Below are positions 10,733-36,941 of a stretch of 64,000 bases of DNA, piece after piece. Position numbers and translations under genes: made by a program. Each line of letters begins with the position of its first letter. The first letter of the stretch is position 1. The notes below the pieces were generated by a model. The model was not told the origin of the DNA, searched no databases, and saw only the letters and a list, made by a program, of their open reading frames with translations. The DNA comes from an uncultured Rickettsiales bacterium (lineage in GTDB: Bacteria > Pseudomonadota > Alphaproteobacteria > RF32 > CAG-239): the NCBI GenBank assembly GCA_900551865.1, contig URXV01000004.1, positions 5,597 through 69,596 of the forward strand, given 5' to 3'.

Positions 10733-10911
10733 ACCTCTCATAGGTAAAATATTCCCCAAAATTCACAATATAATCGGCTGCATTCGAAATATTAACCATA
10801 TTTTAAACATTAAATAGAATCTTTAGCAAGTATATTTACACAACTAATAACAACAAAATCATGTGTTTATGCATTTGCGCAAAACAAAAGCCGGATAATT
10901 GGCTCGCCGGG

Positions 10912-10931: not shown

Positions 10932-11050
10932 GAAGATGAAAATTATTAAAAAACAATTGGTTGCTTGTATTTTTAAGAGGCTTAAAAAACTTGAATTTTT
11001 TTCAAAATTGAGGTAAAGTAAATATGTATAATGAATTTAGGAGAACTGAT

Positions 11051-11766: not shown

Positions 11767-12102
11767 ATGTTTGGACTTGGACGCAAATACGGATTCTTTG
11801 TTATGGTATTGGGTGCCGCAATTCTGCTGACGCCTGTACCTGCATTTGCTGACGGAGCGTTTGGCGGGCTTATAGCTTCGGGGCGGGAAATATTTACAGG
11901 GCTGCGCGAGATTATTTATCCTGCATCCGCCGTCGGCATTATTGCCGTTTGTATCGGCGGCTTTTTCGGAAATATCAACTGGAAATGGCTGACGGCGATT
12001 ATTCTGGGGCTGGTTGTTATCAGCCTGTGCGCAGGATTTGTTTCCATGTTTGCTCCGGACGGGGCTGAATCTATAGCCGAAGATATCGCTTTGGGAAATT
12101 AG
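11767..12102 (+). CDS. virB2: VirB2/TrbC-family T4SS pilin, paralogue 2
   Basis: RBS GGAGGGAGG. Signal peptide ending PAFA. Two hydrophobic helices (AVGIIAVCIGGFFG, AIILGLVVISLCAGFV). 111 aa. Confidence 0.65.
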   Translation: MFGLGRKYGFFVMVLGAAILLTPVPAFADGAFGGLIASGREIFTGLREIIYPASAVGIIAVCIGGFFGNINWKWLTAIILGLVVISLCAGFVSMFAPDGAESIAEDIALGN

Positions 12103-12111
12103 GAGGGAACG

Positions 12112-12477
12112 ATGAACAGAAATATAAAAATAGCCTTTTTGTTTGCCGTATGCGCTGTTTCTGTCGTTTCTTTTTGTGGAGAAGCAGAAGCTGCTTCGGG
12201 CGTATTTGAAACGTTGCGGCAGAAAACGGCGACATTTGCTTCCCAGTTGCGTGTTTTTGCCTATGCCATATCCTGCTTTGGGATTGTAATGTTTACGTTT
12301 CTGGCCATCAGCGGCAAAATCAATTTCAAACATTTGGGATATATTTTTATCAGTTTGTTTATGTTGTCGGCAACGGGAGCTGTTATTGATTATTTCAGCG
12401 GCAGTCATGCCAATCTGAAGTCCGAATTTAATGATACGTATATGAATGCGGTTCCGCGCAGCAGCCTCGGAAGCTGA
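12112..12477 (+). CDS. virB2: VirB2/TrbC-family T4SS pilin, paralogue 3
   Basis: RBS AGGAGGG. Signal peptide ending AEA. Two hydrophobic helices (YAISCFGIVMFTFLAISG, GYIFISLFMLSATGAVI). 121 aa. It starts 9 nt after paralogue 2. Confidence 0.65.
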   Translation: MNRNIKIAFLFAVCAVSVVSFCGEAEAASGVFETLRQKTATFASQLRVFAYAISCFGIVMFTFLAISGKINFKHLGYIFISLFMLSATGAVIDYFSGSHANLKSEFNDTYMNAVPRSSLGS

Positions 12478-12588: not shown

Positions 12589-12879
12589 ATGAAAGATGTT
12601 ATCCTGAAAGCAGTGGCTAATCCGCCCAAATTGTTTTGGGGGCCTGTTCTGCCGACAGCGCTGAATGCCGGTTTGCAGATACCGTTTATGTTTATGGCTA
12701 TCGGTATGGGTGATATCAATCCTCTGGTATTTTTAGTCAGTATTGTTTTGGGGCATTTGATTGTCGTAGCCCTCGGGGCAAAAGACCCCCACTTGTCGGG
12801 TATGATACAGGCTTTCGGCCAGACTAATGTTGTACCGCAGAACTTATACAAAGTGAAAGGGCATAAATTTGAACCTTGA
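12589..12879 (+). CDS. virB3: VirB3/TrbD-like T4SS protein
   Basis: 96 aa with N-terminal LFWGPVLPTALNAGLQIPFMFMAI plus a second hydrophobic helix. It lies immediately upstream of, and overlaps, virB4. Confidence 0.7.
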   Translation: MKDVILKAVANPPKLFWGPVLPTALNAGLQIPFMFMAIGMGDINPLVFLVSIVLGHLIVVALGAKDPHLSGMIQAFGQTNVVPQNLYKVKGHKFEP

Positions 12880-15322
12880 TTTTGACTTTTACACGCTTTT
12901 TATGGCCGGGCTGCAAAGCGCAGACGCGTTTGTTGCGACCTTTGGCATTATCGCTGCTGCCGCTATAGCGGTTTCCCTGGTTTCCAAAATAGGAACGTGG
13001 GTACTGCCGCAGCCGAGCGAGTCCCGCGTGGCTGACTTTCTGCCGTTTGACAGTCTTTTGTCAGACGGATCGACCCTGCGCTGCAGCAACGGGTCGTATG
13101 TCCGTGTGTTCAAGGTTGAAGGGGTGGATTTGACTTCGGCGCGCGAAGAAACGGTCTTGTCTATGTTTGAGGCGCGCAAATCCTGGCTGGATAATATGGC
13201 GGATTTGCAGATTACCTGTCGGGTAATTACCATCAGGGACCGGGTGCCGATGGAAAAAAACAAGGCCGACTTCGGCAATAAATGGCTGAAAATCGTTGAT
13301 GATACCTGGCGCGAAAATCTGAGCCGCGTTTATAAAAATGACCACTATATCATTCTGTCGATAGAAGATAAAAAAGACGCTGTCAAAGATTTAAACTATG
13401 CTTCGCAATCCGTCGTTGCTAATCTGAATGATTACGGTATCAAAGTTATGTACGAAGACGACGAAAGCCCGGCGGAAATGAGTCCCGTGTATCCGTTTGT
13501 CCGGGTGTTGAACCCGATCAGCCGCCCGGCGCCGAAAGCGCGCGGGGCGCAGGGGTTTCAATTAAAAGAGCTGTTGACCGCCGACGGAATTCATTTCACC
13601 GGCGAAGAAGGGGTTATCAAGTTTTTCTCCGGCGGCAAGGAAAAATTTGCCCTTACCATGGGGATAAGGAATTCCGGCGATTATATGGACGAAAGCATGA
13701 TTTCGTCGCTGCTGGCGATTGATTGCGAAATGACGGTTCTTCACAATATTCATCCGCTGTTTAAGCCCAAAGCGCGTATGATTTTGGTTCAGCAACAGAA
13801 AATGGCTGAAGTAACCAGCTTTTCCTCGGACGTTGTTGCGCAGTACAGTGAAGCGCTGGCTGCGATAGAAGACAGCGACGCCGACCACCAGTCGCTTGTT
13901 GAATATTCAATGAGTTTCATCTTAAAAGGCGATACGATGAAGGAAATTGAATTCGGCGAGAGTGAAGTCCAGCGTATCTGCCGGTTGTTCAGCGTAACGC
14001 CGGTTCGCGAAAACTGGATTGCTCAGGCAACATTTTTCAATCAGTTTCCGGGGTATGATACCTGTGGCAGAACATATTTTTATCTGTCAAGGATTGTATC
14101 GCTTGCCGTATCATTTGAACAATTGTCGACCGGCCTTCCGCGCAGTGACTGGGGCGAGGGTGCCATTACCGTTTTCCGCACCATGAGCGGGTCTCCGTAT
14201 CGTTTCCAGTTCCATATTTCCGCTGCTGAGTCAGCCGTGGCGCACTGCTGTATTGTCGGCCCGACCGGACAAGGTAAAACGACACTGCTGACGTTTCTGG
14301 CCGGACAGGCAATGCGGCACGGCGATTTGAAGGTCTATTTCTTTGACCGTCACCGCGGTGCGGAAATATTTACCCACATGGTACAGGGCGCCTATGTCGG
14401 CTTCAGCGGCGAACGCAAGAACGTATCGCTTAATCCTTTTGATTCCCGTGATACGATGAGCAACCGCGCTTTTCTCCGCAACTGGCTCAAGGCGATAACG
14501 ATGGCAAACGACGCGTTATCCGAACGTGAAGCCGCCCGGGCGGTTACGACGGCATTTGACTATCTGCGCCCGGAAGAGAGGGTTTTGAAAAACCTGTATA
14601 AGAGCTGTTTCTCTCCGACCGGCACGATGCGCCGCGAACTATACCGCTGGATAAACCCGGATCAGTACGGTAATATTTTTAACGCCGAGCACGATAGTCT
14701 TGATCTGAGCTCGAACCGCTTTGTCGCGTTTGACTTTACGGAGATTTTTGACGATGACACGCTGGCGGCGGCATCTATCAGCTATATTATGCATCGTATT
14801 CAGTCCGAAAGTACTGAAACCGGCGCTCCGGCTCTGATTATGATTGATGAAACGGCGCCGATGTTAAAACACGAAATGTTTCGTGACAATTTCATCAAAG
14901 GGCTTCAGGAAGGGCGTAAAAAACGCCAGGCATATCTTTGTGCGTTCCAACAGCCGAACATTGTTGACGAGCTGGGTGTCGGAGATGCCGTCCGCGGCCA
15001 GTGCAAGACGATGATTTTCTTCCGCAATACGCAGGCGACGCCGGAATCCTATGCCAAATGGAACCTGACCGACAGCGAGTATGATTTCATCAGCGGCAGG
15101 TCGTACCGCGACTGCCCGTATGCAATTTTGCTGAAACGTCCGGACGCCGGGGAAAACGGAGAGGGCGAGTCAGTTATTCTTGACGTTAATTTAAGCGGTC
15201 TCGGGCCTTATCTGAAGCTTTACAATTCAGGCATTAAAAACGTCTTGCTGGTGGAAAGTCTGGTCAAGGAATTCGGCGAAGACGGATTCGTAACCAAGTA
15301 TCTGGACGGTATGGGGGCATAA
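12869..15322 (+). CDS. virB4: VirB4/TrbE-family T4SS ATPase
   Basis: 817 aa. Walker A GPTGQGKTT, Walker B-like LIMIDE. The start is uncertain (TTG 12869 overlapping virB3, or ATG 12902). Confidence 0.9.
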   Translation: MNLDFDFYTLFMAGLQSADAFVATFGIIAAAAIAVSLVSKIGTWVLPQPSESRVADFLPFDSLLSDGSTLRCSNGSYVRVFKVEGVDLTSAREETVLSMFEARKSWLDNMADLQITCRVITIRDRVPMEKNKADFGNKWLKIVDDTWRENLSRVYKNDHYIILSIEDKKDAVKDLNYASQSVVANLNDYGIKVMYEDDESPAEMSPVYPFVRVLNPISRPAPKARGAQGFQLKELLTADGIHFTGEEGVIKFFSGGKEKFALTMGIRNSGDYMDESMISSLLAIDCEMTVLHNIHPLFKPKARMILVQQQKMAEVTSFSSDVVAQYSEALAAIEDSDADHQSLVEYSMSFILKGDTMKEIEFGESEVQRICRLFSVTPVRENWIAQATFFNQFPGYDTCGRTYFYLSRIVSLAVSFEQLSTGLPRSDWGEGAITVFRTMSGSPYRFQFHISAAESAVAHCCIVGPTGQGKTTLLTFLAGQAMRHGDLKVYFFDRHRGAEIFTHMVQGAYVGFSGERKNVSLNPFDSRDTMSNRAFLRNWLKAITMANDALSEREAARAVTTAFDYLRPEERVLKNLYKSCFSPTGTMRRELYRWINPDQYGNIFNAEHDSLDLSSNRFVAFDFTEIFDDDTLAAASISYIMHRIQSESTETGAPALIMIDETAPMLKHEMFRDNFIKGLQEGRKKRQAYLCAFQQPNIVDELGVGDAVRGQCKTMIFFRNTQATPESYAKWNLTDSEYDFISGRSYRDCPYAILLKRPDAGENGEGESVILDVNLSGLGPYLKLYNSGIKNVLLVESLVKEFGEDGFVTKYLDGMGA

Positions 15323-15327: not shown

Positions 15328-15356
15328 TTGACAAAAAATAAAAAATATGGTACTAT
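15328..15356 (+). promoter_or_regulatory. Near-consensus sigma70-type promoter (TTGACA-17-TACTAT with TGn extended -10)
   Basis: -35 TTGACA at 15328-15333, 17-nt spacer, TGG then TACTAT at 15351-15356. It sits 40 nt upstream of ATG 15396. Confidence 0.6.
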
Positions 15357-15395: not shown

Positions 15396-16604
15396 ATGGG
15401 GAAATGTAAGCGGCATACAGCTATTATCCTTTGTTGCGCCTCGTTTTTAATAAACAAGCCGGCTTACGCGTTTTGGCCCGTACTGGATTTTGGCGAGATA
15501 ATTCCGATTGTTTCAAATGTAACAACCTCTCTGGATTCATTGTCCCAGACCAAATCTCAGTTGACTGAATTAAAAAACAGTCTGAAAGCGATTGGCGACA
15601 GTATAGATACCATTTCTCAGTTTAGTCAGGATTTACGCAATAATCTGGATGATATTGCGGATATCGCCAATGAAAGCGCTGGAATTGTCAATGATAATCT
15701 TGGAACAAACATAGATATTCAAAACGGCGTTACCGACGTTATTGACAAGGTAAATAATGTGCAAAGCGGATTAGTAAATAATGTTGTTGAGCAGACACAG
15801 GGCGCTTTGGATCAGGCTGACGGTATGGCAGATAAAGCAACATCGGGAATTGATACGGCACAAAAAACCGGCAAAGATGCGGAAGATTTGTTGAACAAGG
15901 CTCAGGAAAAGACCCAAAAGCCGAATGCTGATACGGAAAAATCCGGCAGTCAGGAAATATCGGGTTCCTCAACCCCTGTTTCGTCGCAGCCTGAAGCCGT
16001 AGAGGAAGAGGAGGAAGAAGAAGAAATCCCCGATATAAATGACATGGCCGCATTGCGGGAAGAAATAAAGGCAGGCTTTGTTGTGGCCAGAGATGAAAAT
16101 AAAAAAATGGCAGAACAGCTTAATGATGTTATGGATGCATCAGTCAGCGCCCTGAATAAAACGACTGAAGAAAGCCGTTTAGCACTGGAGAAATTAGCTC
16201 AGGCAATCAGGGATACCGACCGGCTGGATAAAAAGGACAAAGAGATGCTGGAGAAAAAAATAGGAGAACTGCAGGTTCGGCAGCAGCAGCTGTCTGACAG
16301 GATGATTGCGGTAGCCGAAAGCGCAAAGGACGAATATAACCTGGAATACCAAAATAAAATTGCCGACGGTATTGATAATTACGAAAAAGTTGTAGAGCGC
16401 TATTTGCGGGGGGATGCATCACGGGAAGAAGTTTTTTCTGCCGGAGAGAAATTAAAAGAGGATGCGGCATTGTTGAATGTTGCTCCCGATAAAGGGATTA
16501 TAGCAGAATTAAACAAAGATGCGGAGATGTTGAAATCGGAGTTTGCCGCTTTGGCAGCAGAAATCAGAACAACGGAAAAGAAAGGGAAAGAAACCGTAAA
16601 TTGA
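15396..16604 (+). CDS. Secreted coiled-coil T4SS-associated protein 1 (VirB5/TrbJ-like N-terminus)
   Basis: RBS GGGAGGG then ATG. Signal peptide ..KPAYA followed by FWPVLDFGEIIPIVSNV..KSQLTELKN. Contains a Glu8 run. The C-terminal block SAKDEYNLEYQNKIADGIDNYEK aligns with SAKEDYNEQYSEKVAAAFDSYSQ of the next ORF. Confidence 0.5.
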   Translation: MGKCKRHTAIILCCASFLINKPAYAFWPVLDFGEIIPIVSNVTTSLDSLSQTKSQLTELKNSLKAIGDSIDTISQFSQDLRNNLDDIADIANESAGIVNDNLGTNIDIQNGVTDVIDKVNNVQSGLVNNVVEQTQGALDQADGMADKATSGIDTAQKTGKDAEDLLNKAQEKTQKPNADTEKSGSQEISGSSTPVSSQPEAVEEEEEEEEIPDINDMAALREEIKAGFVVARDENKKMAEQLNDVMDASVSALNKTTEESRLALEKLAQAIRDTDRLDKKDKEMLEKKIGELQVRQQQLSDRMIAVAESAKDEYNLEYQNKIADGIDNYEKVVERYLRGDASREEVFSAGEKLKEDAALLNVAPDKGIIAELNKDAEMLKSEFAALAAEIRTTEKKGKETVN

Positions 16605-16703
16605 ATAAAAGAAACGGAAAATTAAGAGTATATCAATAAAGTTTCGCTTAGAATGGATTTGCTCGCAGGCCTATGAACCAAAGATTATTAGGGAGGACAC
16701 GAA

Positions 16704-18938
16704 ATGAGTAGGAAAACAGTAAACGGAAAAATTGCAGTAATGGCTGTAATCTGCAGCTTTCTTATTGCAGTGCGCCCGGTACATGCGTTCGTGTGGCCTG
16801 TAATCGATTTGACAGAAATAGTTTCCTTTACAAACAGCATCAGTACAGGGCTAAACCGGATTACCAACGCCAAAAGTCAGTTGGATAATGTAACCAATAC
16901 GATTAAAACAATTGGAGATCAGGTCGCTTCGGTTAAAAAATACGCAGCCGATTTAAAAGGGACAATAACCAATATCAAAGACAGCGTAAGTACGATTACC
17001 GATAATATTGAAGAGACGACCGATAATGTGTCGGGCATTGTTGATGATGTCAATAATACGCTTAACGGTGCAGGCACGACCGAAAATGAAAATGCGGAAA
17101 CGACGGTTGACAGCGTAAACGAACAAGTTGATTCGGGTGCTTCGGAAGAAGATGTACAGACGGTTGTTGATGAAGCCAAAAAAGAATCGGAGACCGTAAG
17201 GGAAAATGTTAACAAGACATTTGATGAAGCCGATAAAGCTATCAATGAATCGCTTGACGCCGCCAATCAGGCCTTGGATATGCTTGTCGACAGCGTTAGC
17301 GGATATGAAGGGCTGAGTGATGAAGAACGCGCCGGATTCGAACAGGAAGCCGGAAATATCAAAAATGATATTGACGGATTAAAGGATACTTCGTCAGACA
17401 TCATCGCTTCCGCTAAGGAAGACTATAACGAACAGTACAGTGAAAAAGTCGCGGCGGCATTTGACAGCTACAGTCAGGCTGTCAGCGATTATTACTCGGG
17501 AAAAACCGACCGCGAAGCGTTAAATCAGGCCGGTGAGGATTTTAAAAACAGCGTAGCTTCCCTTGATGCCGGAATAGACCAGAGCGTTATCGACGGGTTA
17601 GTTGCAAATGCGCAGGAAATTGCAGATAAGATTGATGCGCTTGAAGAAAATATGATGAACAGCATCAGCAATTCAGGGGATTATTCAGACGGCAGTGAGC
17701 AGATGTCTTTTTTAAGGCCGCAAATGCAAGAAAAGTTTGTACGGTCTGGTAAAGTATATGCTTTCGATTTTCACTCGGAAAACTTGTCTTTTTTTCTGAA
17801 AGGGGTTTATGCCGAAGATGCCGATAAAAGTTTTTTGCTGTCTAAAGAACTGGCATGCGATAATTTGGATGTTGCCGACGTAGAAGAAAATCCCGGAAAG
17901 TTAAGAACCTGCGTTGTAAAGGCTAAAACTGAAAAAGACCTGTATCCGAATGCATTCAAAGAAGAACTGTATAAGGATTATCAGAAAAACGGCGTTTACA
18001 AACACATCATTGAAGATTATAGCATTGCCAATATTGTCAGTTTAAGCAAGGCCAAACAATTTTCTGCGACTTGGGGGAGTTTGGAACCGGACGATGACAG
18101 CAATAAGGGAACGCTGTATGTCTTGCGCAAAACCCTGAAAGACGTAGACAATACGCGTAACGGTTTTGCCTTAATGGGGATGACCGATATTGAATCGCCC
18201 AAACTATGGAGCGAAATTCGCCGTATTGACGCATTGAACCGTGCTAAGGCCATGGCGCAGGATTTTGAACGCGGAACGACGCTTTTTTTGGACGGACGCG
18301 ATTCCGAGTTTGTCGAAGCAACCAAAAGGAATTGGGGAACAATGCAAAACGATGACTTGGATGCCAATGAAAATAAGGCAGTAAAAGGAAAAGCCGTTTT
18401 TTCAAATGTAATCTTGTCAATCTGCGGTCTGCGCGCCAAAGATATTTCCGTTTCGGAAATAAATAAAACCGATACGGCATCTATTGCCCAGAAAGAAAAG
18501 AATTTGGCTGATTGCCTGTTTAAATATGCTGAGGCTGCCAGCAAAGGGACAAGCAATGGTTCTGCCATAGGGGCAGATCCCGAGGCCGCCAAAAAAGAAT
18601 GGCGCGATAAACAGACTAAGGCCTATAACGATTCTGCATTTAATAATCTGACACTGGCGGTGGTAAATAACTATAAATCAAGTTTGGACTATGTTGATCC
18701 TAAAAAGCTGCCTGATCCGGATAAGGATAAAAACATTGTCAGTATGCAGGACGGGTTGAAGGAAAGTACGACAACCAAAGACGACTATGCTGCCGGAGCT
18801 CAGATAAACTACTATTCGACACAGCAGATTTTAAGCATAGTAGATGCGGATGCTCAAAATCAGCAGACGGAAATTTTGAAAGATTTGGCAACGTTTGATT
18901 ATAACTATTTTGGCAAAACCACGGGTGGAGAAGGCTGA
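16704..18938 (+). CDS. Secreted coiled-coil T4SS-associated protein 2, paralogue of protein 1 with an extra ~430-aa C-terminal domain
   Basis: Signal peptide ..RPVHA followed by FVWPVIDLTEIVSFTNS..KSQLDNVTN. The N-terminal ~310 aa are collinear with the previous ORF. Confidence 0.5.
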   Translation: MSRKTVNGKIAVMAVICSFLIAVRPVHAFVWPVIDLTEIVSFTNSISTGLNRITNAKSQLDNVTNTIKTIGDQVASVKKYAADLKGTITNIKDSVSTITDNIEETTDNVSGIVDDVNNTLNGAGTTENENAETTVDSVNEQVDSGASEEDVQTVVDEAKKESETVRENVNKTFDEADKAINESLDAANQALDMLVDSVSGYEGLSDEERAGFEQEAGNIKNDIDGLKDTSSDIIASAKEDYNEQYSEKVAAAFDSYSQAVSDYYSGKTDREALNQAGEDFKNSVASLDAGIDQSVIDGLVANAQEIADKIDALEENMMNSISNSGDYSDGSEQMSFLRPQMQEKFVRSGKVYAFDFHSENLSFFLKGVYAEDADKSFLLSKELACDNLDVADVEENPGKLRTCVVKAKTEKDLYPNAFKEELYKDYQKNGVYKHIIEDYSIANIVSLSKAKQFSATWGSLEPDDDSNKGTLYVLRKTLKDVDNTRNGFALMGMTDIESPKLWSEIRRIDALNRAKAMAQDFERGTTLFLDGRDSEFVEATKRNWGTMQNDDLDANENKAVKGKAVFSNVILSICGLRAKDISVSEINKTDTASIAQKEKNLADCLFKYAEAASKGTSNGSAIGADPEAAKKEWRDKQTKAYNDSAFNNLTLAVVNNYKSSLDYVDPKKLPDPDKDKNIVSMQDGLKESTTTKDDYAAGAQINYYSTQQILSIVDADAQNQQTEILKDLATFDYNYFGKTTGGEG

Positions 18939-19636
18939 TGAAAAAGAAACTGTGTATAGCCCTGTTCCTTTCTTTGTTCGTGTATACGAGAGAAGCGTAT
19001 GCAATTTTTGACATAATGGCAAAAGTGCAGTCGGCGCTGGAACTGTATAAGGATGTAGAAAATAAGGTTCAGCAATATACCAAAAAGCTGCGCGATATAG
19101 AAAAGAGGGCGCGGCAGGGGTTTGACTTGGCAAGCAGCTGTTACAAAAACCCGAAACAATGTGATCCGAAAGCTCTGGAGGCTTTTGCCAAGGATTCGGA
19201 AAGTTATGTAAAAAGCATGAAGGAGATTAGGGTTATGCCGGGCGCCGAAGAGCTGAAAAAAGGCGATTTGAAGAAAAAAAGCGACAAAAGCCTGGCGCAA
19301 ACGGTTGAAACCAGCTATATTTACCAGCGCGGCCAGGGGGATGATATTGAAAAGACCAGTGAAAACCGCCGTTTGATTAATGCCGTCATAGCGGATGATG
19401 CGGCGCTGCTGTTTGCCAAGGGCGTTTCGGCACGACAGAGCATACTCGTCGAAGACGGTTCTCTGTATCAGGTTGAATTCAAAAAGAATAATATTGATGA
19501 AATTCTAAATGCGCAAAACATCGTAGCTATCGCGACACAACAGCGTTTGAACCGGATTTTGGAGCTTCGCGCATATATGGCGAGCGCGGGAGCGACGGCT
19601 GAACTGACGCGTCAAACCAGAGAAGCGGATGAATAG
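18938..19636 (+). CDS. VirB5/TrbJ-like secreted protein (best size match to canonical VirB5)
   Basis: 232 aa. Signal peptide ..REAYA then IFDIMAKVQSALELYKDVENKVQQ. Helical throughout. One-nt overlap (TGATG) with the upstream gene. Confidence 0.4.
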   Translation: MKKKLCIALFLSLFVYTREAYAIFDIMAKVQSALELYKDVENKVQQYTKKLRDIEKRARQGFDLASSCYKNPKQCDPKALEAFAKDSESYVKSMKEIRVMPGAEELKKGDLKKKSDKSLAQTVETSYIYQRGQGDDIEKTSENRRLINAVIADDAALLFAKGVSARQSILVEDGSLYQVEFKKNNIDEILNAQNIVAIATQQRLNRILELRAYMASAGATAELTRQTREADE

Positions 19637-19648
19637 GGGAGGCAGGCA

Positions 19649-20995
19649 ATGAAAAAACAGTTAATTGCAACGGCATTAATCTTCTCGCTGGCACTCGGTC
19701 CCAAACCTGCCGCAGCGTTGATTATTGATGCGCCGACGCTGGCAGCAAAAATCAGCGAATGGGCAGGTAAGCTTGCCGATGCCTCAACGCAGATAACGAC
19801 ACACGTTTCTCAGGCAAAACAGATGACGTCGCAGGGCTTCAATAAGGAAGAACTTTTCGGACTGGCTAAAGAATATGCGACCGAAAACGGTAAAAAACTG
19901 GTTCAGGAAAAAATGAAAAAAGTTGTCGAGGGAACCAAAAAGAAAAACAAGGATAAGCTTCAGGCAGAGCAGGATGCTTATGTAGAAGGGCGTAATCTGT
20001 ATTATGACGAAAAAATCGGCATCGTTGAAGAAAGCATAAAAGAAACCAGAAGTTTGCAGGCGTCAAAAGAAAGCGAACGCGACCAGAAAAGGGCGGAAGT
20101 CCAGCAAAAGAAAGCCAAATACGAAAGTGTAAAGCATATTCCCGGTGAAGCTGAAAAGGCGCAGGATGAATATATGACAGCCCAGATGGAATATGATGCG
20201 CTGGTTGCGGCGTGTACAGAACTGGATACTTTGGCTATAACGCTGGAGTCCCAGCGCGATACGCTGGAAAATGAAAAAGCCAAGGTTGGAACTTCGGAAG
20301 ACCCGCAGTATGTATCGTATCAGGCCCGTCTGAAAGAATTAGATGCTGATAAAGAAGACGAAACTTTTGTCAGCAAAGTAGCAGATGAGGAAGATATTGA
20401 ATGGAGTATGAAGAGTAATCCGGATATCGTCAACCAGTTTACGCCGACTGAAGAGGACTATAAAAAATTTATTGAACGTTATTTTTATGATCCGGAAGAG
20501 TTGGGCAGCGCGTCGGGCGATGAAGGGCGCATTATGCACCAGACAAAAATTGATGCCGTTGCGCGCGAACGGAAGTACTTGCTGACCAATACGGCGGCGC
20601 ATCTTTTACAGGTAACGGCAACGCTGCGGCGTGAGATTCCGGTGCGAACCGAAATAATTGACGAAATGTTCAAAAACACGCCCAAAGCTACCGGCGAGTT
20701 GGAGGCTATTTCGTCTTATTCGGCAACCAGAATAGAAAATATGAAGGCTCTGCTGATGTATGCCAAACTGCAAAGCGCCCGCTTGCAGTATATGGCGGCA
20801 AGAGAACTTTTGAATCTGAACGGTGTAAAAACGCCGAACGGAACCTATAAGGATTTTGATTTGGAAAAATATATTCTGACTAAGGAATATGTTGATAAGA
20901 TTGTAAAAGAGGCTGATACGGCCAACAATGCCGTAACCGCGGTGGAAGAAAATTACAAAGTTAACGGGGAGGACTACCAATGGTTAAAAAATTAA
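19649..20995 (+). CDS. Secreted coiled-coil T4SS-associated protein 4
   Basis: 448 aa. Signal peptide ..KPAAA then LIIDAPTLAAKISEWAGKLADASTQI. Charged helical repeats. No membrane helices, so it is not VirB6/TrbL despite its position. Confidence 0.45.
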   Translation: MKKQLIATALIFSLALGPKPAAALIIDAPTLAAKISEWAGKLADASTQITTHVSQAKQMTSQGFNKEELFGLAKEYATENGKKLVQEKMKKVVEGTKKKNKDKLQAEQDAYVEGRNLYYDEKIGIVEESIKETRSLQASKESERDQKRAEVQQKKAKYESVKHIPGEAEKAQDEYMTAQMEYDALVAACTELDTLAITLESQRDTLENEKAKVGTSEDPQYVSYQARLKELDADKEDETFVSKVADEEDIEWSMKSNPDIVNQFTPTEEDYKKFIERYFYDPEELGSASGDEGRIMHQTKIDAVARERKYLLTNTAAHLLQVTATLRREIPVRTEIIDEMFKNTPKATGELEAISSYSATRIENMKALLMYAKLQSARLQYMAARELLNLNGVKTPNGTYKDFDLEKYILTKEYVDKIVKEADTANNAVTAVEENYKVNGEDYQWLKN

Positions 20996-23900
20996 GATTG
21001 CTGCAATGCCTGCTCCTGAGTGTCGTCATCTTGGGTGCAGAGGTAAAAAAGGCAGATGCATTCTTTTTATTGCCGCCGATGCCTTGGGACATTGAAGTCG
21101 ATATCCCCGGCAATGCCAATAAGGTGGTGTCCAATCTGAAAGCTTATTACCGCCAGCTTCAGACGATTAAATCCGAGCTGAACAGCCAAAAGCTTGAAGT
21201 TCTTAAAAAAGGACAGGTTTTTGCTTTTGTATCCGAAAAACTTAAAAGCGAAGGCGGTAAAAATAAAACCCCGGGCAAGGGAAAATTACAAAACAATGCC
21301 GAGCTGGGCATCAGCAAAGGCGGCCTTGATGAAGAAGAAAATTTCAATGCTTTCCATACGCTGTTTTTCACCTATCCTCCCGAAAGCGACTATCCGGACA
21401 ACTATCCGGCGGTGAAGACGGCATATAAACACAAGGCAATTGAATATAAGCAGGATGTAATAATGGAAACCTACCTGACCGGAAGGGTAACGGAAGATTA
21501 TCTGGGTTTAGTAGAAAAGACCATTGAGCGGTTGGATAATTGCCAGAAAGGGCTGTATACTAAGGAAGAAATGGCCGAACACTGCGTCTTTTTCGGTTTG
21601 CAGATGGCTTATGTCGAGCCGGAAAAGGCCGAGCCTGAAGGCGATCCGGAAAATAGTGAAAACCCCGGTCAGTACGGCGAAATTATGAACGCCTATATCG
21701 TAACGACGGTGTATGACCGCCTGATGCGTATGGTAGAAGACTTGACAGCGGCGGAAGCACAGTTTATGTCTGCTAAGCAGATTGATATGGTTGATCCGAT
21801 AAATCCTGATGACCAGCAGAGTTCGGCCGAGGATTATCTTGATAACGGATATCGTTTTGCTTATAATGAAAGCCGCACCTATGCCCATGCTAAAGGAACG
21901 ATGCTTGGCGGCGACTACATTCGCAGCGAAGAATGCAAAAACGGTGGCAAAAACTGCCCCGGACTGAACGAGGATAATGCCGAGCTCAAAAATGCGGACG
22001 ATACGGCAATTTTAGGAAAACTGCAACCGATTGACGAGCAGATTAATCAGGCGATGAACCTGCATAACTTAAAGGCTCAGCTGGGCGAATATAAGTCTCA
22101 GTACCGTAAATATTTGAAAGCTAAAGAAATTCATGAGCGTATGCTGAAAGTTCTGGAAAAGAGCGATCAGTGCACGGCCGGATTCTTTGACCGTTACAGT
22201 AATGGCCAGGGGGCATCTATCTGGTACGGCGGCAGCGCTCCGGCCAAAGCTAACGACCATGACAGTCGTTCCGGGCTCTCCCGTACTGTAATAGAAGAGT
22301 ACCAGAAAGATACGACGGATACGATATTGGGAACGAAAAGCAGTGAATGTGACGGGTTTTATGAAAGCTGCCCCGACGGGTATCGCTTGGATGAAACCAA
22401 TCCTTGCCAATACGAAGACGCTTCGGGCAAGACTGTAACCAGTTCAACCATGTTTGCCTGCGTATTGGATACGGTTACGTCAGATACGGAACCAAAAGAA
22501 GGTGATTATCCTAAAGTAGATTTTAATCCAAAGCTGGAAAGAATGAATTTTGAAGACGGAACCTCAAAATCAGGTTATGAGGAAGCCGGAGAGGAGATTA
22601 TAAACAATCGCGAATATAATGATACCGATTTCCTGATAGACGGAACGCAGGCCGATGATATCCAGACAGATAACCGTGTAAAGGCCGAAAAAGGCTGGCG
22701 CATAGGATACAATCACGTTATGGAACTGACTGAAAACGGCACCTTGCAGTTTGAACCCTGGAACGACCAGAAGAACCTGCAATCCGAATATCTGCGCAAT
22801 AAATATCGGAATATGCGGATGATAGTCAAAGCCGTAGACGAAGGTATGATGTCCTATCGCGTGGCTAAGACTCAGGCGGAGAAATATGGCAGAGTAGGGC
22901 CGATTGAAAAAGTGTTGCCTGCTGTTACCGCGTGTAAATTAACAACCGATGCAACAAAAGATGCCTGGAATCAGGAATGTGGTGATTTCAGCTTAACAAA
23001 TTCAAATCCTGGCGGAGATACCGCATCTTATTCTGGTACCAGGACCATAATGTGTACCTGCTACAACAGCGACGGTGAACCCTATAGCTGCTCCAAGATA
23101 CTGCACTGTAGTATCAGCGGCAGCAATGATACGGGGTGGATTACGGGAAGCAAAGAGGAAGGGTGTGTACCGACGACGGTTCCGATAAAATATGACCAGC
23201 GTATAAAATCCCTTTCCGGCGGCTGCGCTTTCCCGAAAGCAAATACCACCTATGAGGCTTCATTGGAAGACAAAAGCGGAAAATGTCCGGGAACGTGGGA
23301 TTTCAGTACGAAATTCCTTGTTCAGAAATATATGCCGGCCGTTGTTGGCAGCTGGAAAAATGGCGGCGGTTTTGAAAGCACCTGCCCGGGCAGTCTGGAT
23401 TCGCAAACTACCCATCTGTTTGACAATACACATGCAGCCGGACGGGTAGTAGCTTCTGACCGCTTTGAGGATATTCTGAAAAAGCGTAAAGAAGTGGAAC
23501 AAAGGCTTCAGAGTATGGTTACGCAGTATGAAAGCGAAATGAAGTCGCTGAAGGCTCAGCTGAAGTCAACCATTGAAGCGCGCAAATCGCACAGCGAACG
23601 CTTAAGCCAGGCAACGGATACCAAAAATGAAGCCGTGCAGGAGCGTCAGCGTTCTCTGCAAAGGGTAACTGCGATTGAAAATCAGATTAACGATTTGAAA
23701 AACAACCGTATACCGGCCTTGCAGGAACGTCTTGCCGGCAGAAATCCGAAGCCTGAAAAACTGCAAAAGGATTTGGATTCTATCCTGACCGGCGCCGGTG
23801 AAGATTTGGAAAAATATGAAAATCCGACCCTTGCGCAGAAAATCGGTCAGATTCCGGCGCTGGAAGAAGAACTTGCCTATATCTGCAAAAAGGCTCCGGC

Positions 23901-26436
23901 AAAAGACAAGGAATGTGCGCCGTACAGCGGCAAGTCCAATCAATATGACCCGTATGAAAATATTGAAGACGAAGACGATATTTTCAAAAATGTCGCCGAG
24001 TTGGAAAATACGATAACAACGGCTCAGGTAACAATGGACAGTGCGCAGTCTATGCTGGATGTGCTTCAGGACCAGATTGACAGCCTTAGCGAACAGATAA
24101 GGGAGCGCGCATCCCGCTTTGCCAAGGAATATCTGGCTGCCGCGGAGCAGGGACAGCAGGAAATTGAAGCTGCCAACAAAGAATTTGAAGACAAGCTTGA
24201 AACCAAGGATGACGGCAGTGAGCCAGACCGTATGGTTAATAATAACCGCCGTTGGTGCAAAAAAGACGGGTTCTTGGGAATTGGCTGCAGGGAATACAGC
24301 CACGAATATAAATTTGACAACCTTAAATGGACGATGGCGAGAGTTATGTTCGGCAACGGTACGTCAAACAGCGAAGGGGCCGTAGACGGTGAATTGCCGG
24401 GAATTGTCAATGATACGATAGACGAGCGCTGGTTCAAAAACAACTGGTCGCAGTACCCGCAGAAACTGTCAAGTGTCGGTGTTGTTCGCAAGTTTGTGGT
24501 TGCATGTGGCAACTGTATGGCAGATGCGGGAGTCCCTGATAAAAACGAACCATACACGCCGGATAGTTTAGCTCAGGCAGTCAAGAAACAGGCGATGAAA
24601 GAAGCTGTTGATGCGCTCGCAGGAGCTGGCGGATATATTCCGAAAGCCGATGAAATTATCAAAGATGAAGTTGATTCGGCGGTAAAGGAAATTACGACCG
24701 TTATGGAAGAATGGGGCGTAACCGGAGAAGACGGCGTAGCGCCGAATGAAGCCATATACAAGCATGCAAATTATGCAGGCAATGGCGAAGGTAACGGCGG
24801 ACAGGCTGTAACGGCTCGCCATTACAAACTGATTGACGAGCTGAAACAGGCCGAGCATCAATCTGAACTTGATGCAGCAGAAATTGCATTGGAAGAAAGT
24901 TTCGGTATCCCGTCCGGTATTGTAACCGATGACGATTTCTTTGCCGGGTTGCCTGCTCGCGGTGCATATACGGTAACTGTTCCGTCATATGGCAAACAGC
25001 CTGAAAAACTCAAGTTTGATGAAAATGACGGACGCGATTATATGGCGCCGCACCGGCCGTTGCTGAATTTGGCGCCGATAAGGGAAGTGTTCTATTTCAG
25101 TGCTATGGATTATGACGATGTTCCGCAGGAAAACGGCGCGCCGTCGCTTTCAACGCTGGTTGACCGGAAATATAAAAATACCGAGGGCGTTGAACCTGTA
25201 GAATATTTGCCGGAGACCTGGCGTTATCTTCTTGCGACGCCGAATATGCGCAATGAGCCGACACCGAAATATCAGCAGACGTTTGTTGAACGGTCTTATG
25301 GCAAAGACAAGTTAAAAGACTATATAAACAATAAAGATATCGGTGGTAAAGAAGAACACTACCGCGCAATAATCGGACGCGCCGGCGTATATCCGTGCAA
25401 GCTTGGCGGTACGGTAATTGACGAAGGGGGCGGCGATGGTGTCGGCGATATGAGCTTTAAACGGCGCAGTTCAATCCCGGCCGGAGCTAATACCGAAACC
25501 TGTCAGGAAGTAGAACTCCATAAAAACGGCGTTCGCCATTTGCTGGCAGATCACAATGCCAAGGATGAAGGCAAGTCAAAAGCCTTGCAGGGAAGTCTGG
25601 GCAGCACGTCCGAACCGATGTACACAAACTACAGCGAATTAGGGCAGTTTCTGAACGGTGATTTGAAATATCGTCCGATGCTGAAGAATATATATGATTA
25701 TTTGCTGGATGAAAATAATCAGGACAACAGTATCGAACGCCAGCGCGGAGATTTGGCGACGTTTAAGCGTAACGTTATCGGTGGATTCCTTGAAGCTGTA
25801 AATGCCGAACATAATGCGCAGAAGACATTGGATAACAATAAGGAAGACGTTGTTAATTCTCTGAAGAACTTGTGTACGCAGCTGCATAACTTTGGGGAGA
25901 GCGTCAACGGCGAGGCCTGCGAAGATGAAAGCGACAGTACCTGTGCTGATCAGATTGCAGAACAGTGTGCAGCCTATATTATGGATAACGGAGGTCTGGC
26001 GAAAAATGCAGCTGATGACAAATATGAGGTTGATTGTGCCCAATCTTCCGGCGGTTCCTATTACGAGCAGATATTCTGCAAACTGAATGACCTGAAAGAT
26101 GAGGCTATTGCCAAAGCCCATCAGGGGTATTCCGAAACAGACAGCGATGGAACCACGGTTACCTATGTCGGTTTCGATAACCTGAAAGGGGAAGCTTCTG
26201 CTACGGATTCTGACAGGGTTAAAGAGCGCATTCAGGAAATTGAGGATTATTTCGGAGCCTTTGAAGCCGATGCCGATGAAGTATCTTATATTCAGCCGAA
26301 AGCGACAAAAGCGTCTGTAACTGAAGACGTCAAAGAGGCTAAGGCCAACTGGGAAGCTTCGCGTGCGGCGGAAGAGGAGGGTATAACCTCAATGGATAAT
26401 CAGAGTCAGGCGGTAGCTTACTGTCCGGTATATTAA
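20980..26436 (+). CDS. Giant (1818 aa) secreted, Cys-rich, coiled-coil-containing T4SS-associated protein
   Basis: RBS GGGGAGGA. Signal peptide ..KKADA then FFLLPPMPWDIEVDIPGNANKVVSNLKAYYRQLQTIKSEL. Cys clusters include CKNGGKNCPG, CDGFYESCPDGYRLDETNPC and CTCYNSDGEPYSCSKILHC. A central ~250-aa coiled coil is present. No TM helix follows the signal peptide. Confidence 0.55.
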   Translation: MVKKLRLLQCLLLSVVILGAEVKKADAFFLLPPMPWDIEVDIPGNANKVVSNLKAYYRQLQTIKSELNSQKLEVLKKGQVFAFVSEKLKSEGGKNKTPGKGKLQNNAELGISKGGLDEEENFNAFHTLFFTYPPESDYPDNYPAVKTAYKHKAIEYKQDVIMETYLTGRVTEDYLGLVEKTIERLDNCQKGLYTKEEMAEHCVFFGLQMAYVEPEKAEPEGDPENSENPGQYGEIMNAYIVTTVYDRLMRMVEDLTAAEAQFMSAKQIDMVDPINPDDQQSSAEDYLDNGYRFAYNESRTYAHAKGTMLGGDYIRSEECKNGGKNCPGLNEDNAELKNADDTAILGKLQPIDEQINQAMNLHNLKAQLGEYKSQYRKYLKAKEIHERMLKVLEKSDQCTAGFFDRYSNGQGASIWYGGSAPAKANDHDSRSGLSRTVIEEYQKDTTDTILGTKSSECDGFYESCPDGYRLDETNPCQYEDASGKTVTSSTMFACVLDTVTSDTEPKEGDYPKVDFNPKLERMNFEDGTSKSGYEEAGEEIINNREYNDTDFLIDGTQADDIQTDNRVKAEKGWRIGYNHVMELTENGTLQFEPWNDQKNLQSEYLRNKYRNMRMIVKAVDEGMMSYRVAKTQAEKYGRVGPIEKVLPAVTACKLTTDATKDAWNQECGDFSLTNSNPGGDTASYSGTRTIMCTCYNSDGEPYSCSKILHCSISGSNDTGWITGSKEEGCVPTTVPIKYDQRIKSLSGGCAFPKANTTYEASLEDKSGKCPGTWDFSTKFLVQKYMPAVVGSWKNGGGFESTCPGSLDSQTTHLFDNTHAAGRVVASDRFEDILKKRKEVEQRLQSMVTQYESEMKSLKAQLKSTIEARKSHSERLSQATDTKNEAVQERQRSLQRVTAIENQINDLKNNRIPALQERLAGRNPKPEKLQKDLDSILTGAGEDLEKYENPTLAQKIGQIPALEEELAYICKKAPAKDKECAPYSGKSNQYDPYENIEDEDDIFKNVAELENTITTAQVTMDSAQSMLDVLQDQIDSLSEQIRERASRFAKEYLAAAEQGQQEIEAANKEFEDKLETKDDGSEPDRMVNNNRRWCKKDGFLGIGCREYSHEYKFDNLKWTMARVMFGNGTSNSEGAVDGELPGIVNDTIDERWFKNNWSQYPQKLSSVGVVRKFVVACGNCMADAGVPDKNEPYTPDSLAQAVKKQAMKEAVDALAGAGGYIPKADEIIKDEVDSAVKEITTVMEEWGVTGEDGVAPNEAIYKHANYAGNGEGNGGQAVTARHYKLIDELKQAEHQSELDAAEIALEESFGIPSGIVTDDDFFAGLPARGAYTVTVPSYGKQPEKLKFDENDGRDYMAPHRPLLNLAPIREVFYFSAMDYDDVPQENGAPSLSTLVDRKYKNTEGVEPVEYLPETWRYLLATPNMRNEPTPKYQQTFVERSYGKDKLKDYINNKDIGGKEEHYRAIIGRAGVYPCKLGGTVIDEGGGDGVGDMSFKRRSSIPAGANTETCQEVELHKNGVRHLLADHNAKDEGKSKALQGSLGSTSEPMYTNYSELGQFLNGDLKYRPMLKNIYDYLLDENNQDNSIERQRGDLATFKRNVIGGFLEAVNAEHNAQKTLDNNKEDVVNSLKNLCTQLHNFGESVNGEACEDESDSTCADQIAEQCAAYIMDNGGLAKNAADDKYEVDCAQSSGGSYYEQIFCKLNDLKDEAIAKAHQGYSETDSDGTTVTYVGFDNLKGEASATDSDRVKERIQEIEDYFGAFEADADEVSYIQPKATKASVTEDVKEAKANWEASRAAEEEGITSMDNQSQAVAYCPVY

Positions 26437-26473: not shown

Positions 26474-27232
26474 ATGGCTAATTTGATAAATCAAAAGATT
26501 TTGCGTATTGCCGACAAAGGGAAAGCCAAAGAGCCTCCCGCGTTCATCACGGAAGATGTTGTTGAAGTCCGTCGCGCAAAGCTGATTTATTACAAATGGA
26601 TATCGCGATTAATGGCGATGTTGGCCACTGTTTCGCTTCTTTACGGCGTTTGTACCACATTATCCATTTTAAAACTGGCTCCGGAAATAGTCATTGACCC
26701 GCAGATGTTTGTTGAGCTGTCTGATTCGCAGTCGCTTGTTAAAAGAGAACATATTAACCGCCGGATGGATTCGCGGGAAAAAATGATGATTAACTTTATG
26801 AAACAATATGTCGAACTGCGAAACACCTATATCAAAGACGAGCGGGAAATGAATAACCGTTGGCTTTGGGGTGGTCTTGTATCGTACTTGTCAACGTATA
26901 AGGTTTACAAGGAGTTTGAAAAAGTGTTTCCCAAACTGCGGGCAGAAATGGTAGAGAACAATTCCAGCCGCTCGGTAGAAATCCTGTCGGTTGAACGTAC
27001 CGGCGGCGAAAACAGCAATACTTGGAAAATTGAGTTCAAAACCTATGACTATACGTTTAAAAGCGACCGTTTAAGCCGCCGGTCCAGCGTTACGCCGACA
27101 ATTACCGAAAGGTATTGGACCGCCAACATCCGCGGTTATGTCGACCCGAACCGGAGAACGGCATACCGTCGCCTGCTAAATCCTCTCGGATTTGTCGTCT
27201 ATAGTTATTTTCAAAGCGAAATCGAGATTTAA
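26474..27232 (+). CDS. virB8: VirB8/TrbF-family protein, paralogue 1
   Basis: 252 aa. N-terminal cytoplasmic tail, one TM (LMAMLATVSLLYGVCTTLSIL), then a periplasmic domain with YVELRNTY..EM..RW and the C-terminal NPLGFVVYSY motif. Confidence 0.75.
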   Translation: MANLINQKILRIADKGKAKEPPAFITEDVVEVRRAKLIYYKWISRLMAMLATVSLLYGVCTTLSILKLAPEIVIDPQMFVELSDSQSLVKREHINRRMDSREKMMINFMKQYVELRNTYIKDEREMNNRWLWGGLVSYLSTYKVYKEFEKVFPKLRAEMVENNSSRSVEILSVERTGGENSNTWKIEFKTYDYTFKSDRLSRRSSVTPTITERYWTANIRGYVDPNRRTAYRRLLNPLGFVVYSYFQSEIEI

Positions 27233-27375: not shown

Positions 27376-27564
27376 ATGTATAAAGCGCTGATTTTGGTAT
27401 TTGCCGTCTTAATTTTAGCCGCCTGCAATCTGGTTGGCAGCTATTACGAGCCTGAACCCGTCGGAATAGGCAAAGACGTGTACGAACTTAAGCTTTCTCC
27501 CTGTGCCTGTATAGAGGTGGAACTGCCGAAGACGCTGCCGGACTGGTTCCGGGCAATGAGCTGA
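27376..27564 (+). CDS. Small lipoprotein (VirB7-like by size and context)
   Basis: 62 aa. RBS AAGAGGA. Lipobox LAAC (MYKALILVFAVLILAAC). It lies between the two virB8 paralogues and upstream of virB9. Confidence 0.45.
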   Translation: MYKALILVFAVLILAACNLVGSYYEPEPVGIGKDVYELKLSPCACIEVELPKTLPDWFRAMS

Positions 27565-27580
27565 ATTAGAGGTACGGTTG

Positions 27581-28345
27581 ATGGCTGAACAGATTTCTTC
27601 TGACAATACAAAAAAACTGCTCTTGGAGGGAGGCGGAGCCAAAGCGGCGCCGCAGCCTCGTCCGGCACGCCCGCACCGGCGTCCCGGAAATGCGGATATT
27701 GTTGTCGAGAATGCAACGGAAAAGCGTTATCTGTGGACGGCGCGGGCTTTTGCCATCATCTTTGCCGTCAGCCTGTGCTGTAATTTGATTCTGACGTATG
27801 TCGTATTCGCCATAATGCCGCTGTATCGGATTGAACCGTATTTGTTCAGTTTTTCAAACAAAGAAGACCAGATATATACTATCCATCCGGTGAAAAATAT
27901 CTATGAACATAAATATTTGACGGAAATTTTTGTCAGGGAATATGTCCTTCTTCGTAATACGTTTGTTAATGATGTTGAAGAAATGGAACAGCGTTGGGGG
28001 GCTGGCAGTACGATACAGGAGATGTCCGCAACCGGAGTTTATGATAAGTTTCGCAAGGAATTTGCCGATGCGGCGATTGAACTTATCCGCAAGCATAATA
28101 TTACCCGTAACATAAAGATTTCTTCCGTAACCGAGGTTGGCGGTGTAAACGGTGAAACCTGGTGGCAGGTGGAGTTTCGGGTTGAAGATATGATGCCGGA
28201 ATATGAAACGCCCCGTTTGAGCGTGTGGGTGGCTTCCGTTAAGATAAGATACCGTGCCAAACGGGTTAAATTTGGCGAAAGGCTGAAAAATCCGTTGGGA
28301 TTTACCGTCCTTGACTATAAACAGGTTGAACGCAAAACAAATTAA
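27581..28345 (+). CDS. virB8: VirB8/TrbF-family protein, paralogue 2
   Basis: One TM (FAIIFAVSLCCNLILTYVVFAIM). Motifs YVLLRNTF..EMEQRW and NPLGFTVLDY. ATG at 27581 is preferred over TTG at 27578. Confidence 0.75.
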   Translation: MAEQISSDNTKKLLLEGGGAKAAPQPRPARPHRRPGNADIVVENATEKRYLWTARAFAIIFAVSLCCNLILTYVVFAIMPLYRIEPYLFSFSNKEDQIYTIHPVKNIYEHKYLTEIFVREYVLLRNTFVNDVEEMEQRWGAGSTIQEMSATGVYDKFRKEFADAAIELIRKHNITRNIKISSVTEVGGVNGETWWQVEFRVEDMMPEYETPRLSVWVASVKIRYRAKRVKFGERLKNPLGFTVLDYKQVERKTN

Positions 28346-28367
28346 TTGAATGTTTAGGGTATGCATA

Positions 28368-36940: not shown

Positions 36941-36941
36941 T

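Follow-up and report, generated by a model that had tools for sequence, protein, structure and literature searches.

In type IV secretion systems (T4SSs), VirB5 and VirB6 make up the central stalk, and VirB5 is thought to touch the target cell. A T4SS gene cluster of an uncultured gut alphaproteobacterium, which runs along the plus strand from 11.0 to 42.3 kb of a 64,000-nucleotide stretch of contig URXV01000004.1 (the whole stretch analysed here, called the window), raises the question of which proteins fill the slot between its virB4 and virB8 genes. Five co-oriented open reading frames (ORFs) are sandwiched there:

15396-16604, plus strand: ORF1, 402 amino acids (aa) from ATG, a predicted secreted, divergent VirB5-like protein (the longest ORF runs from a TTG at 15378)
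16704-18938, plus strand: ORF2, 744 aa, a putative second VirB5-like paralogue
18938-19636, plus strand: ORF3, 232 aa, a predicted secreted, helical protein of VirB5 size, from an apparent orphan family
19649-20995, plus strand: ORF4, 448 aa, a predicted secreted protein, from an apparent orphan family
20980-26436, plus strand: ORF5, 1818 aa, a large predicted secreted protein, from an apparent orphan family

The original prediction had placed the five ORFs at 15396-26436, where we found them, with a length of 403 aa for ORF1, and had described them as secreted coiled-coil proteins that occupy the VirB5/VirB6 slot and begin like VirB5. Our analysis divides the set. By their sequences, ORF1 and ORF2 appear to be divergent relatives of VirB5, and ORF3, ORF4 and ORF5 are best classed as lineage-restricted orphan families that belong to no known family. 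The VirB5 reading thus seems correct where ORF1 and ORF2 are concerned; for ORF3 and ORF4 it is unproven, and for ORF5 it lacks support. We consider it somewhat more probable than not (a probability of about 0.55) that the five genes form an exposed module specific to this lineage, a tip, stalk or adhesin with two VirB5 paralogues at its core and three new Sec-exported partners.

The five ORFs are real genes with predicted signal peptides

The five ORFs are real genes under purifying selection, because ORF3 and ORF4 have clusters of homologues, because the identical five-gene order is found between virB4 and virB8 in 26 of 26 related loci (18 species, from metagenome-assembled genomes (MAGs) of gut and rumen Alphaproteobacteria), and because their ratios of nonsynonymous to synonymous substitution rates (dN/dS) are 0.03-0.20 in five close species pairs. 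A GGAGG-type ribosome-binding site precedes each of the five genes by 6-9 nucleotides (nt). The genes are tightly packed, with gaps of 73, 99, 12 and 37 nt and two overlaps, and a simple scan detected no convincing intergenic terminator. The 73-nt gap between virB4 and ORF1 contains a sigma-70-like promoter match at 15328-15356 (TTGACA, 17 nt, TG-extended TACTAT), which may represent an internal promoter for the five genes.

The N-termini of all five proteins are basic, then hydrophobic, and end in a small-x-small pattern. Cleavage is predicted between AYA and F in ORF1, VHA and F in ORF2, AYA and I in ORF3, AAA and L in ORF4, and ADA and F in ORF5. The A-x-A ending that had been ascribed to every signal peptide is therefore present in four of them, ORF2 having V-x-A; the mature N-termini that had been quoted are correct. 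Past the signal peptide, a hydrophobic 19-residue window was found in none of the five. Assignment of any of them as VirB6 was ruled out, as they have no membrane segments and no TrbL/VirB6 match in Pfam.

Scans of the window's five proteins against Pfam and NCBIfam returned only coiled-coil noise, and no toxin or enzyme family was found among them in these two databases. This noise, together with the predicted structures of ORF3 (nearly all helix) and ORF4 (a helical hairpin), agrees with the earlier description of the five as secreted, helix-rich and partly coiled-coil proteins.

ORF1 and ORF2 as divergent relatives of VirB5

ORF1 and ORF2 were matched by blastp with E = 1e-27 over 380 aligned positions (24% identity) and by hhalign with a probability of 100% over 295 columns. 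These results uphold the proposal that the two are paralogous over approximately 300 aa, and their degree of divergence suggests that the duplication is old. The N-terminal ~300 aa of ORF2 constitute the part that is homologous to ORF1; the remainder is an extra conserved C-terminal domain of ~400 aa with four invariant Cys residues. For this domain we found no known relatives, and a profile search of PDB sequences yielded coiled-coil noise, with TrwJ at E = 0.08.

The mature N-terminus of ORF1 is of the VirB5 type (FWPVLDF...KSQL...G) and is followed by helical regions divided by a poly-Glu run. For comparison with VirB5, we used a reference set of six annotated genes, R388 TrwJ and five alphaproteobacterial plasmid VirB5s, and ran hhalign on mature sequences from which the signal peptides had been removed. 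Residues 2-42 of ORF1 aligned with residues 2-42 of the VirB5 set, with a probability of 81% for full-length profiles and 96% for N-terminal profiles (P = 1e-5 to 1e-8), and residues 3-42 of ORF2 aligned with residues 2-41 (probability 45-91%). When a combined N-terminal profile of ORF1 and ORF2 was searched against PDB sequences, TrwJ (7o3v, the VirB5 of R388) was found at E = 1.8e-4, ranked second after a designed helical bundle. The same profile recovered only three proteins from a collection of 5.8 billion, and none of these bridged the pair to VirB5.

The Pfam family for VirB5, PF07996, has a gathering cut-off of 24.7 bits. It matched three of seven ORF1 orthologues, among which it was the most frequent family, and four of 15 ORF2 orthologues (best E = 2.7e-4). 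In one ORF1 orthologue the match reached 25.5 bits and aligned residues 26-169 with profile positions 3-143 of 197; residue 26, at which it starts, belongs to the first residues of the mature protein.

Gene position and protein layout also liken ORF1 and ORF2 to the VirB5/TrwJ/TraC/TrbJ family (PF07996). Both genes lie just after virB4 and encode a Sec signal peptide, and both mature N-termini proceed, in register with VirB5, from hydrophobic residues through P-V-x-D to a long polar helix ending in Q-L...G. In contrast to VirB5, ORF1 is ~1.8 times and ORF2 ~3.3 times the usual size, ORF1 carries the poly-Glu insert and ORF2 the extra ~400-aa domain, and the confident alignment covers only ~40 residues, rising to ~145 in one orthologue. 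Furthermore, VirB6, which is the usual neighbour and mount of VirB5, was not found in the window or the 10 kb on either side. In R388, the N-terminal part of VirB5 projects outward and resembles pore-forming proteins, and VirB5 is later located at the pilus tip (PMC9259494; PMC12624023). Because only the N-terminal ~40 residues appear to be retained, ORF1 and ORF2 may serve as a natural experiment that shows which parts VirB5 cannot do without.

Two further features of ORF1 were observed. Residues 204-209 (positions ~16000-16030) lie in a run of at least six Glu residues that is invariant in all ORF1 orthologues and flanked by very variable sequence; ORF2 has no poly-Glu run. In two species the longest ORF of the ORF1 orthologue is ~690 aa (locus L014, 5674-7731; locus L016, 5630-7714), as compared to 350-430 aa elsewhere, which may reflect an N-terminal extension or fusion, or may be an artefact of choosing the longest ORF.

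ORF3, ORF4 and ORF5 as candidate orphan families

In contrast to ORF1 and ORF2, the other three proteins gave no significant alignment with VirB5. Their mature sequences aligned with the VirB5 set by hhalign over 8-25 columns only (P = 0.007-0.16), and PF07996 matched none of 33 ORF3 orthologues, none of 23 ORF4 orthologues and not the window's ORF5. A hidden Markov model (HMM) built from the N-termini of VirB5, ORF1 and ORF2 was run against the 358 ORFs of the window; it ranked ORF4 fourth, with E = 0.79, and left ORF3 and ORF5 unmatched. The VirB5-type N-terminus, which the original prediction had seen in all five proteins, is supported in ORF1 and ORF2 by hhalign, TrwJ and PF07996 and finds no such support in ORF3, ORF4 or ORF5 (P of 0.007 or higher, no PF07996 match).

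The 55 clusters of ORF3 homologues come without exception from uncultured gut or rumen Alphaproteobacteria, and no Pfam domain was found in any of them. Members of the family share an invariant start of the mature protein (I-F/I-D), a QGF motif and a conserved pair of Cys residues, C68 and C75. An AlphaFold2 model based on a 33-sequence alignment was nearly all helix, with a predicted local distance difference test score (pLDDT) of 67 and a predicted template modelling score (pTM) of 0.47. In this low-confidence model, three long helices (26-70, 136-171 and 186-225) are combined with a middle insert. The modelled layout recalls that of VirB5, whose fold (TraC, 1R8I) consists of three long bundled helices with a globular appendage, but a Foldseek search of the PDB with the low-confidence model gave nothing below E = 0.48. 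A likeness of ORF3 to influenza haemagglutinin HA2 (residues 56-75, positions 19100-19165, QGF...C-x6-C) was at chance level, with E of about 1-3, and was judged to be coincidental.

ORF4 has 31 clusters of homologues, which come only from the same uncultured gut and rumen alphaproteobacterial lineage. Its N-terminus (LIID...QGF) and a C-terminal helical region are conserved. The AlphaFold2 model had a pLDDT of 65 overall and included a confident long helical hairpin at residues ~100-230. With this low-confidence model, Foldseek found generic coiled coils only, and a profile search of PDB sequences gave only coiled-coil noise. Neither the ORF3 nor the ORF4 model was matched by Foldseek to VirB5, TraC, CagL or TrwJ, which at a pLDDT of 65-67 is a weak negative.

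A shared C-terminal helix pattern had been proposed for ORF3 and ORF4. This was not borne out by hhalign: their C-terminal halves gave P = 0.24 against each other and no significant match to VirB5. There is instead a weak, in-register likeness between their N-termini, with residues 1-43 of ORF3 aligned to residues 2-44 of ORF4 (P = 2e-4), and a weak, in-register N-terminal likeness was also found between ORF2 and ORF4 (P = 6e-4).

The Pfam family found most often among ORF4 orthologues was DUF4141 (4 of 23, residues 7-52, 11-18.5 bits against a cut-off of 30). DUF4141 is a 53-residue N-terminal domain of a Bacteroides conjugative-transposon protein that is listed between traG and traJ. The traG product, the conjugative ATPase of the transposon, is taken to be the equivalent of VirB4, and the ORF4 gene is likewise situated just downstream of the conjugative ATPase gene, virB4 here and traG there. 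However, all of the matches in ORF4 orthologues are below the curated cut-off and lie partly over the signal peptide, and the link between ORF4 and DUF4141 is suggestive only.

ORF5 contains many invariant Cys and Pro residues and a central coiled-coil region at ~830-1090. It had no match in Pfam or NCBIfam, and a profile search of PDB sequences gave coiled-coil noise. An exhaustive phmmer search of 1.84 billion representatives with residues 1265-1818 retrieved 52 proteins, nearly all of them full-length and ORF5-like; no relative of this C-terminal domain outside its own family was found in that search. Comparison of full-length ORF5 by hhalign with ORF1, ORF3, ORF4, the C-terminal domain of ORF2 and VirB5 also found nothing. 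The C-terminus of ORF5 (positions 26380-26433) reads ...MDNQSQAV-x-YCP-x-Y and is invariant or nearly so in 13 of 13 aligned orthologues, which suggests a functional motif.

Since no homology to a T4SS component could be detected in ORF3, ORF4 or ORF5, we considered whether they are periplasmic or envelope proteins that are unrelated to secretion and became fixed in the operon by chance. This appears very unlikely. The three families were found only in a T4SS context, with strict synteny in 26 loci; their start and stop codons overlap or adjoin those of T4SS neighbours; and the N-terminus of ORF4 has the weak likeness to that of ORF2.

Proposed arrangement of the five proteins

On the reading that we prefer, the products of the five genes would be the portion of a chromosomal VirB-type (type IVA) system that is specific to the lineage and lies in the periplasm and exposed at the surface. 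Export of ORF1 and ORF2 by the Sec pathway and cleavage of their signal peptides would expose a VirB5-type N-terminus, consisting of two or three hydrophobic residues, Pro-Val-x-Asp and a long polar helix. The two proteins would then cap a stalk, or a pilus made of three VirB2 paralogues, and contact the target, and the extra C-terminal domain of ORF2 might serve as an adhesin-like head. ORF3, ORF4 and ORF5 would be co-transcribed, Sec-exported partners, most likely accessory subunits of the tip, stalk or adhesin that join ORF1 and ORF2 in one assembly. In Helicobacter, the VirB5-like CagL is accompanied by CagI and CagH, and a partnership of this kind would resemble it. We infer the localisation of the five proteins, their assembly with the machine, their role in adhesion or contact, and any role of ORF3, ORF4 and ORF5. 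The locus provides candidate proteins through which these bacteria might contact a host or prey. We found no literature on RF32 or gut Alphaproteobacteria in connection with T4SSs, and no paper that describes the five-gene module.

In favour of this reading are the position of the co-oriented, closely spaced genes between virB4 and virB8, the VirB5 homology of ORF1 and ORF2 and the outward-facing role of the VirB5 N-terminus in R388, the conservation of the mature N-termini, the weak N-terminal likenesses of ORF4 to ORF3, ORF2 and DUF4141, the elevated rates of evolution described below, and the constant number and order of the genes in 18 species. Several of our results weigh against it. Confident alignment with VirB5 stops after ~40 residues of the mature ORF1 and ORF2 proteins, and the window's own copies of these two proteins, like all five ORFs, have no PF07996 match at E ≤ 1. 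ORF3, ORF4 and ORF5 lack a significant link to VirB5 or any other T4SS protein, and the low-confidence models of these first two found no counterpart. VirB6, on which VirB5 is usually mounted, is not encoded in the window or the adjoining 10 kb. Finally, the fast evolution of the five proteins could simply reflect weak constraint on coiled-coil sequence.

Evolutionary rate and comparison with the Bartonella Trw system

The core machine evolves far more slowly than the five ORFs. Across about 20 loci, the mean identity to the window sequence was 91% for VirB4, 87% for the candidate VirB3, 87% for the VirB7-like protein and 75-76% for the two copies of VirB8, as compared to 34-58% for the five ORFs (ORF3, 58%; ORF2, ORF4 and ORF5, 48% each; ORF1, 34%); the VirB2 paralogues had 64-74%. 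ORF1 is the fastest-evolving gene of the cluster, with ~40% identity even where VirB4 is 95% identical between species. Similarly, the highest dN/dS values were those of ORF1 (0.09-0.20) and the VirB2 paralogues (up to 0.21), as compared to 0.01 for VirB4.

The mature N-termini are conserved above the protein average in all five families. Ranked among all 40-residue windows of the protein, the first 40 residues were in the top 1-6% for ORF1, ORF3 and ORF5; in ORF4 they fell within the top 16%, and in ORF2 within the top 30%. ORF1 to ORF4, like VirB5, open with two to four hydrophobic residues that are followed by a nearly invariant Asp.

Alternatively, the five proteins, or some of them (ORF3, ORF4 and ORF5 above all), might be Sec-exported cargo instead of machine parts. 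A T4SS that operates with no coupling protein would then release them after their assembly in the periplasm, as the Ptl system of Bordetella does with the five Sec-dependent subunits of pertussis toxin. The fast evolution of the five proteins and their Sec signal peptides would fit such a role, as would the very large size of ORF5 and its many conserved Cys residues, which are common to many extracellular proteins, and the missing link of ORF3, ORF4 and ORF5 to machine components. Likewise, no gene for the coupling protein VirD4 was found in the window or 10 kb to either side, although VirD4 may be encoded elsewhere in the genome. We nevertheless regard the cargo explanation as unlikely. ORF1 and ORF2 carry the N-terminus of a structural protein, VirB5, the genes are located inside the structural operon and not beside it, Pfam and NCBIfam revealed no toxin or enzyme domain, and the strong conservation of the mature N-termini fits an assembly interface.

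The original prediction had drawn a parallel with the Trw system of Bartonella, and this parallel proved to be partial. In Bartonella, trwL (VirB2) and trwJ (VirB5) are amplified, the coupling protein is lacking, and the system has a role in adhesion; the exposed TrwJ and TrwL display a pattern of elevated rates (PMC2883598). By analogy, the pattern of dN/dS and identity described here matches that of TrwJ and TrwL (PMC2883598). The likeness extends to the presence of three VirB2 paralogues and two VirB5-like genes, to the lack of VirD4 in the neighbourhood, to the highest dN/dS in the pilin and VirB5-like genes, and to a chromosomal location in a host-associated organism. However, the duplication of ORF1 and ORF2 appears to be old (24% identity) and fixed, with two copies in every locus and no variable tandem array. 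Furthermore, trwI (VirB6) and trwH (VirB7) are co-amplified in Bartonella, whereas VirB6 is absent from the locus described here and VirB7 is not amplified, and three unrelated secreted proteins have been added.

The locus thus specifies an unusual chromosomal system in common uncultured gut Alphaproteobacteria, with two apparently old VirB5 paralogues, three new predicted secreted partners and three pilins, with no VirB6 or coupling protein nearby, and with very large repeat proteins around VirB10. The system may be an organelle that is dedicated to adhesion or contact, as in Bartonella Trw, or its stalk may be built differently.

The missing VirB6 and the five-gene slot of Rickettsiales

A search for a VirB6-like polytopic ORF, VirD4 and VirB1 in the window and 10 kb beyond each end (~84 kb) found none of them. 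In R388, the stalk consists of a VirB5 pentamer atop a VirB6 pentamer (PMC9259494). Another explanation for the locus is that the five proteins form a hetero-oligomer, with one copy of each, that replaces the five-fold VirB5/VirB6 stalk. Such an oligomer would account for the fixed number of five genes, which is exact in the slot of every locus, and for the missing VirB6, and it would be in keeping with the conserved hydrophobic N-terminus, followed by a helix, with which all five proteins begin.

The gene order of the rvh system of Rickettsia also bears on this question. Islets A and C of rvh contain virB3, virB4 and five genes, and virB8, virB7, virB8, virB9, virB10 and virB11 (PMC2653234). 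Rickettsia lacks VirB5, and the five genes in its slot encode hydrophobic VirB6 paralogues that are 674-1154 aa long. Likened by order alone, the locus described here has the same arrangement, with five genes after virB3-virB4 on an alphaproteobacterial chromosome, and it has a duplicated VirB8 that flanks a lipoprotein gene, giving virB8-virB7-virB8 as in islet C. In contrast to rvh, VirB6 domains and membrane segments are lacking in all five proteins here, of which two are VirB5-like, and there is no VirB6 at the locus; rvh is also split into islets, and it includes virD4. The correspondence with the five Rickettsiales VirB6 paralogues raises the question of whether five genes in the slot are related to the five-fold symmetry of the stalk.

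The slot in Rickettsia, which holds five VirB6 paralogues and has the same downstream order (PMC2653234), adds to the case for a hetero-oligomer, which we consider quite unlikely all the same. The five proteins differ about eight-fold in size (232 to 1818 aa), mutual homology can be demonstrated only between ORF1 and ORF2, and none of the five has hydrophobic helices like those with which VirB6 holds the stalk in place and recruits pilin. That the genes number five may be chance, and VirB6 may be encoded elsewhere, as the vir genes of Rickettsia, virD4 among them, are distributed over five islets across the chromosome (PMC2653234). A broader form of the idea, in which the five genes here and the five Rickettsiales VirB6 paralogues can each be traced to the five-fold symmetry of the T4SS stalk, in a machine without a canonical VirB6, is an analogy to which we likewise give a low chance.

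Neighbouring genes

In addition to the module of ORF1 to ORF5 and its putative VirB5 paralogues, the cluster contains the following genes:

11024-11398, plus strand: VirB2/TrbC-like pilin 1 (PF04956), with a signal peptide and two membrane segments
11767-12102, plus strand: VirB2/TrbC-like pilin 2 (PF04956 in orthologues), with a signal peptide and two membrane segments
12112-12477, plus strand: VirB2/TrbC-like pilin 3 (PF04956 in orthologues), with a signal peptide and two membrane segments
12589-12879, plus strand: candidate VirB3, 96 aa, from its size and position, with a single membrane segment and an 11-nt overlap with virB4
12869-15322, plus strand: VirB4, 817 aa (PF03135), best PDB match TrwK, E = 8e-48
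26474-27232, plus strand: VirB8, copy 1 (PF04335)
27376-27564, plus strand: VirB7-like lipoprotein, 62 aa, with the lipobox LAAC and a sequence that begins MYKALILVFAVLILAAC; present in all related loci
27578-28345, plus strand: VirB8, copy 2 (PF04335)
28350-30356, plus strand: VirB9, 668 aa (PF03524), with a C-terminal SPOR domain (PF05036)
30332-36940, plus strand: beta-flower/YD-repeat protein, 2202 aa, membrane-anchored (PF21785, PF21784; TIGR01643)
36903-41264, plus strand: VirB10, 1453 aa, with a TrbI domain (PF03743)
41363-42343, plus strand: VirB11 (PF00437)

The closest solved relative of VirB4 is TrwK, and the system is therefore classed, from this match, as VirB-type (type IVA). The candidate VirB3 has no family match. 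The VirB7-like lipoprotein is 80-92% identical across related species. In VirB9, a long low-complexity linker rich in Ser, Asn and Gly leads to the C-terminal SPOR (peptidoglycan-binding) domain. The 2202-aa protein encoded between virB9 and virB10 has one N-terminal membrane segment and otherwise consists almost entirely of beta-flower/YD-like repeats; VirB10 contains ~800 aa of the same beta-flower repeats ahead of its TrbI domain.

Outside the T4SS cluster, the following genes were found:

161-10759, minus strand: type IVb pilus cluster, with a bundlin-like pilin, T2SSF, a T2SSE ATPase, PilO, a secretin and TcpQ
downstream of the T4SS: yidC, gpsA, recF, dnaN, dnaA, fpg, mfd and recG
also downstream: engB, recognised from its sequence

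The locus is chromosomal and near replication-origin genes, because dnaN, dnaA, recF and others adjoin it. Its identification as a mobile element was rejected: its neighbours include dnaA, dnaN, recF, yidC and ATP synthase genes, and it resembles the flanks in G+C content. The ORF3 region is ~99% identical to MNTT01000014.1, from a MAG named 'Acetobacter sp. 46_36'; gut MAGs of this kind probably fall in the uncultured order RF32.

The type IVb pilus cluster is complete, lies back to back with the T4SS and contains two proteins without a family. Its adjacency to the T4SS is kept in related species (loci L001, L005-L008 and L034-L035). In L034 and L035, a second T2SSE ATPase, which is of PilT size, is encoded just beyond the position that corresponds to the window start.

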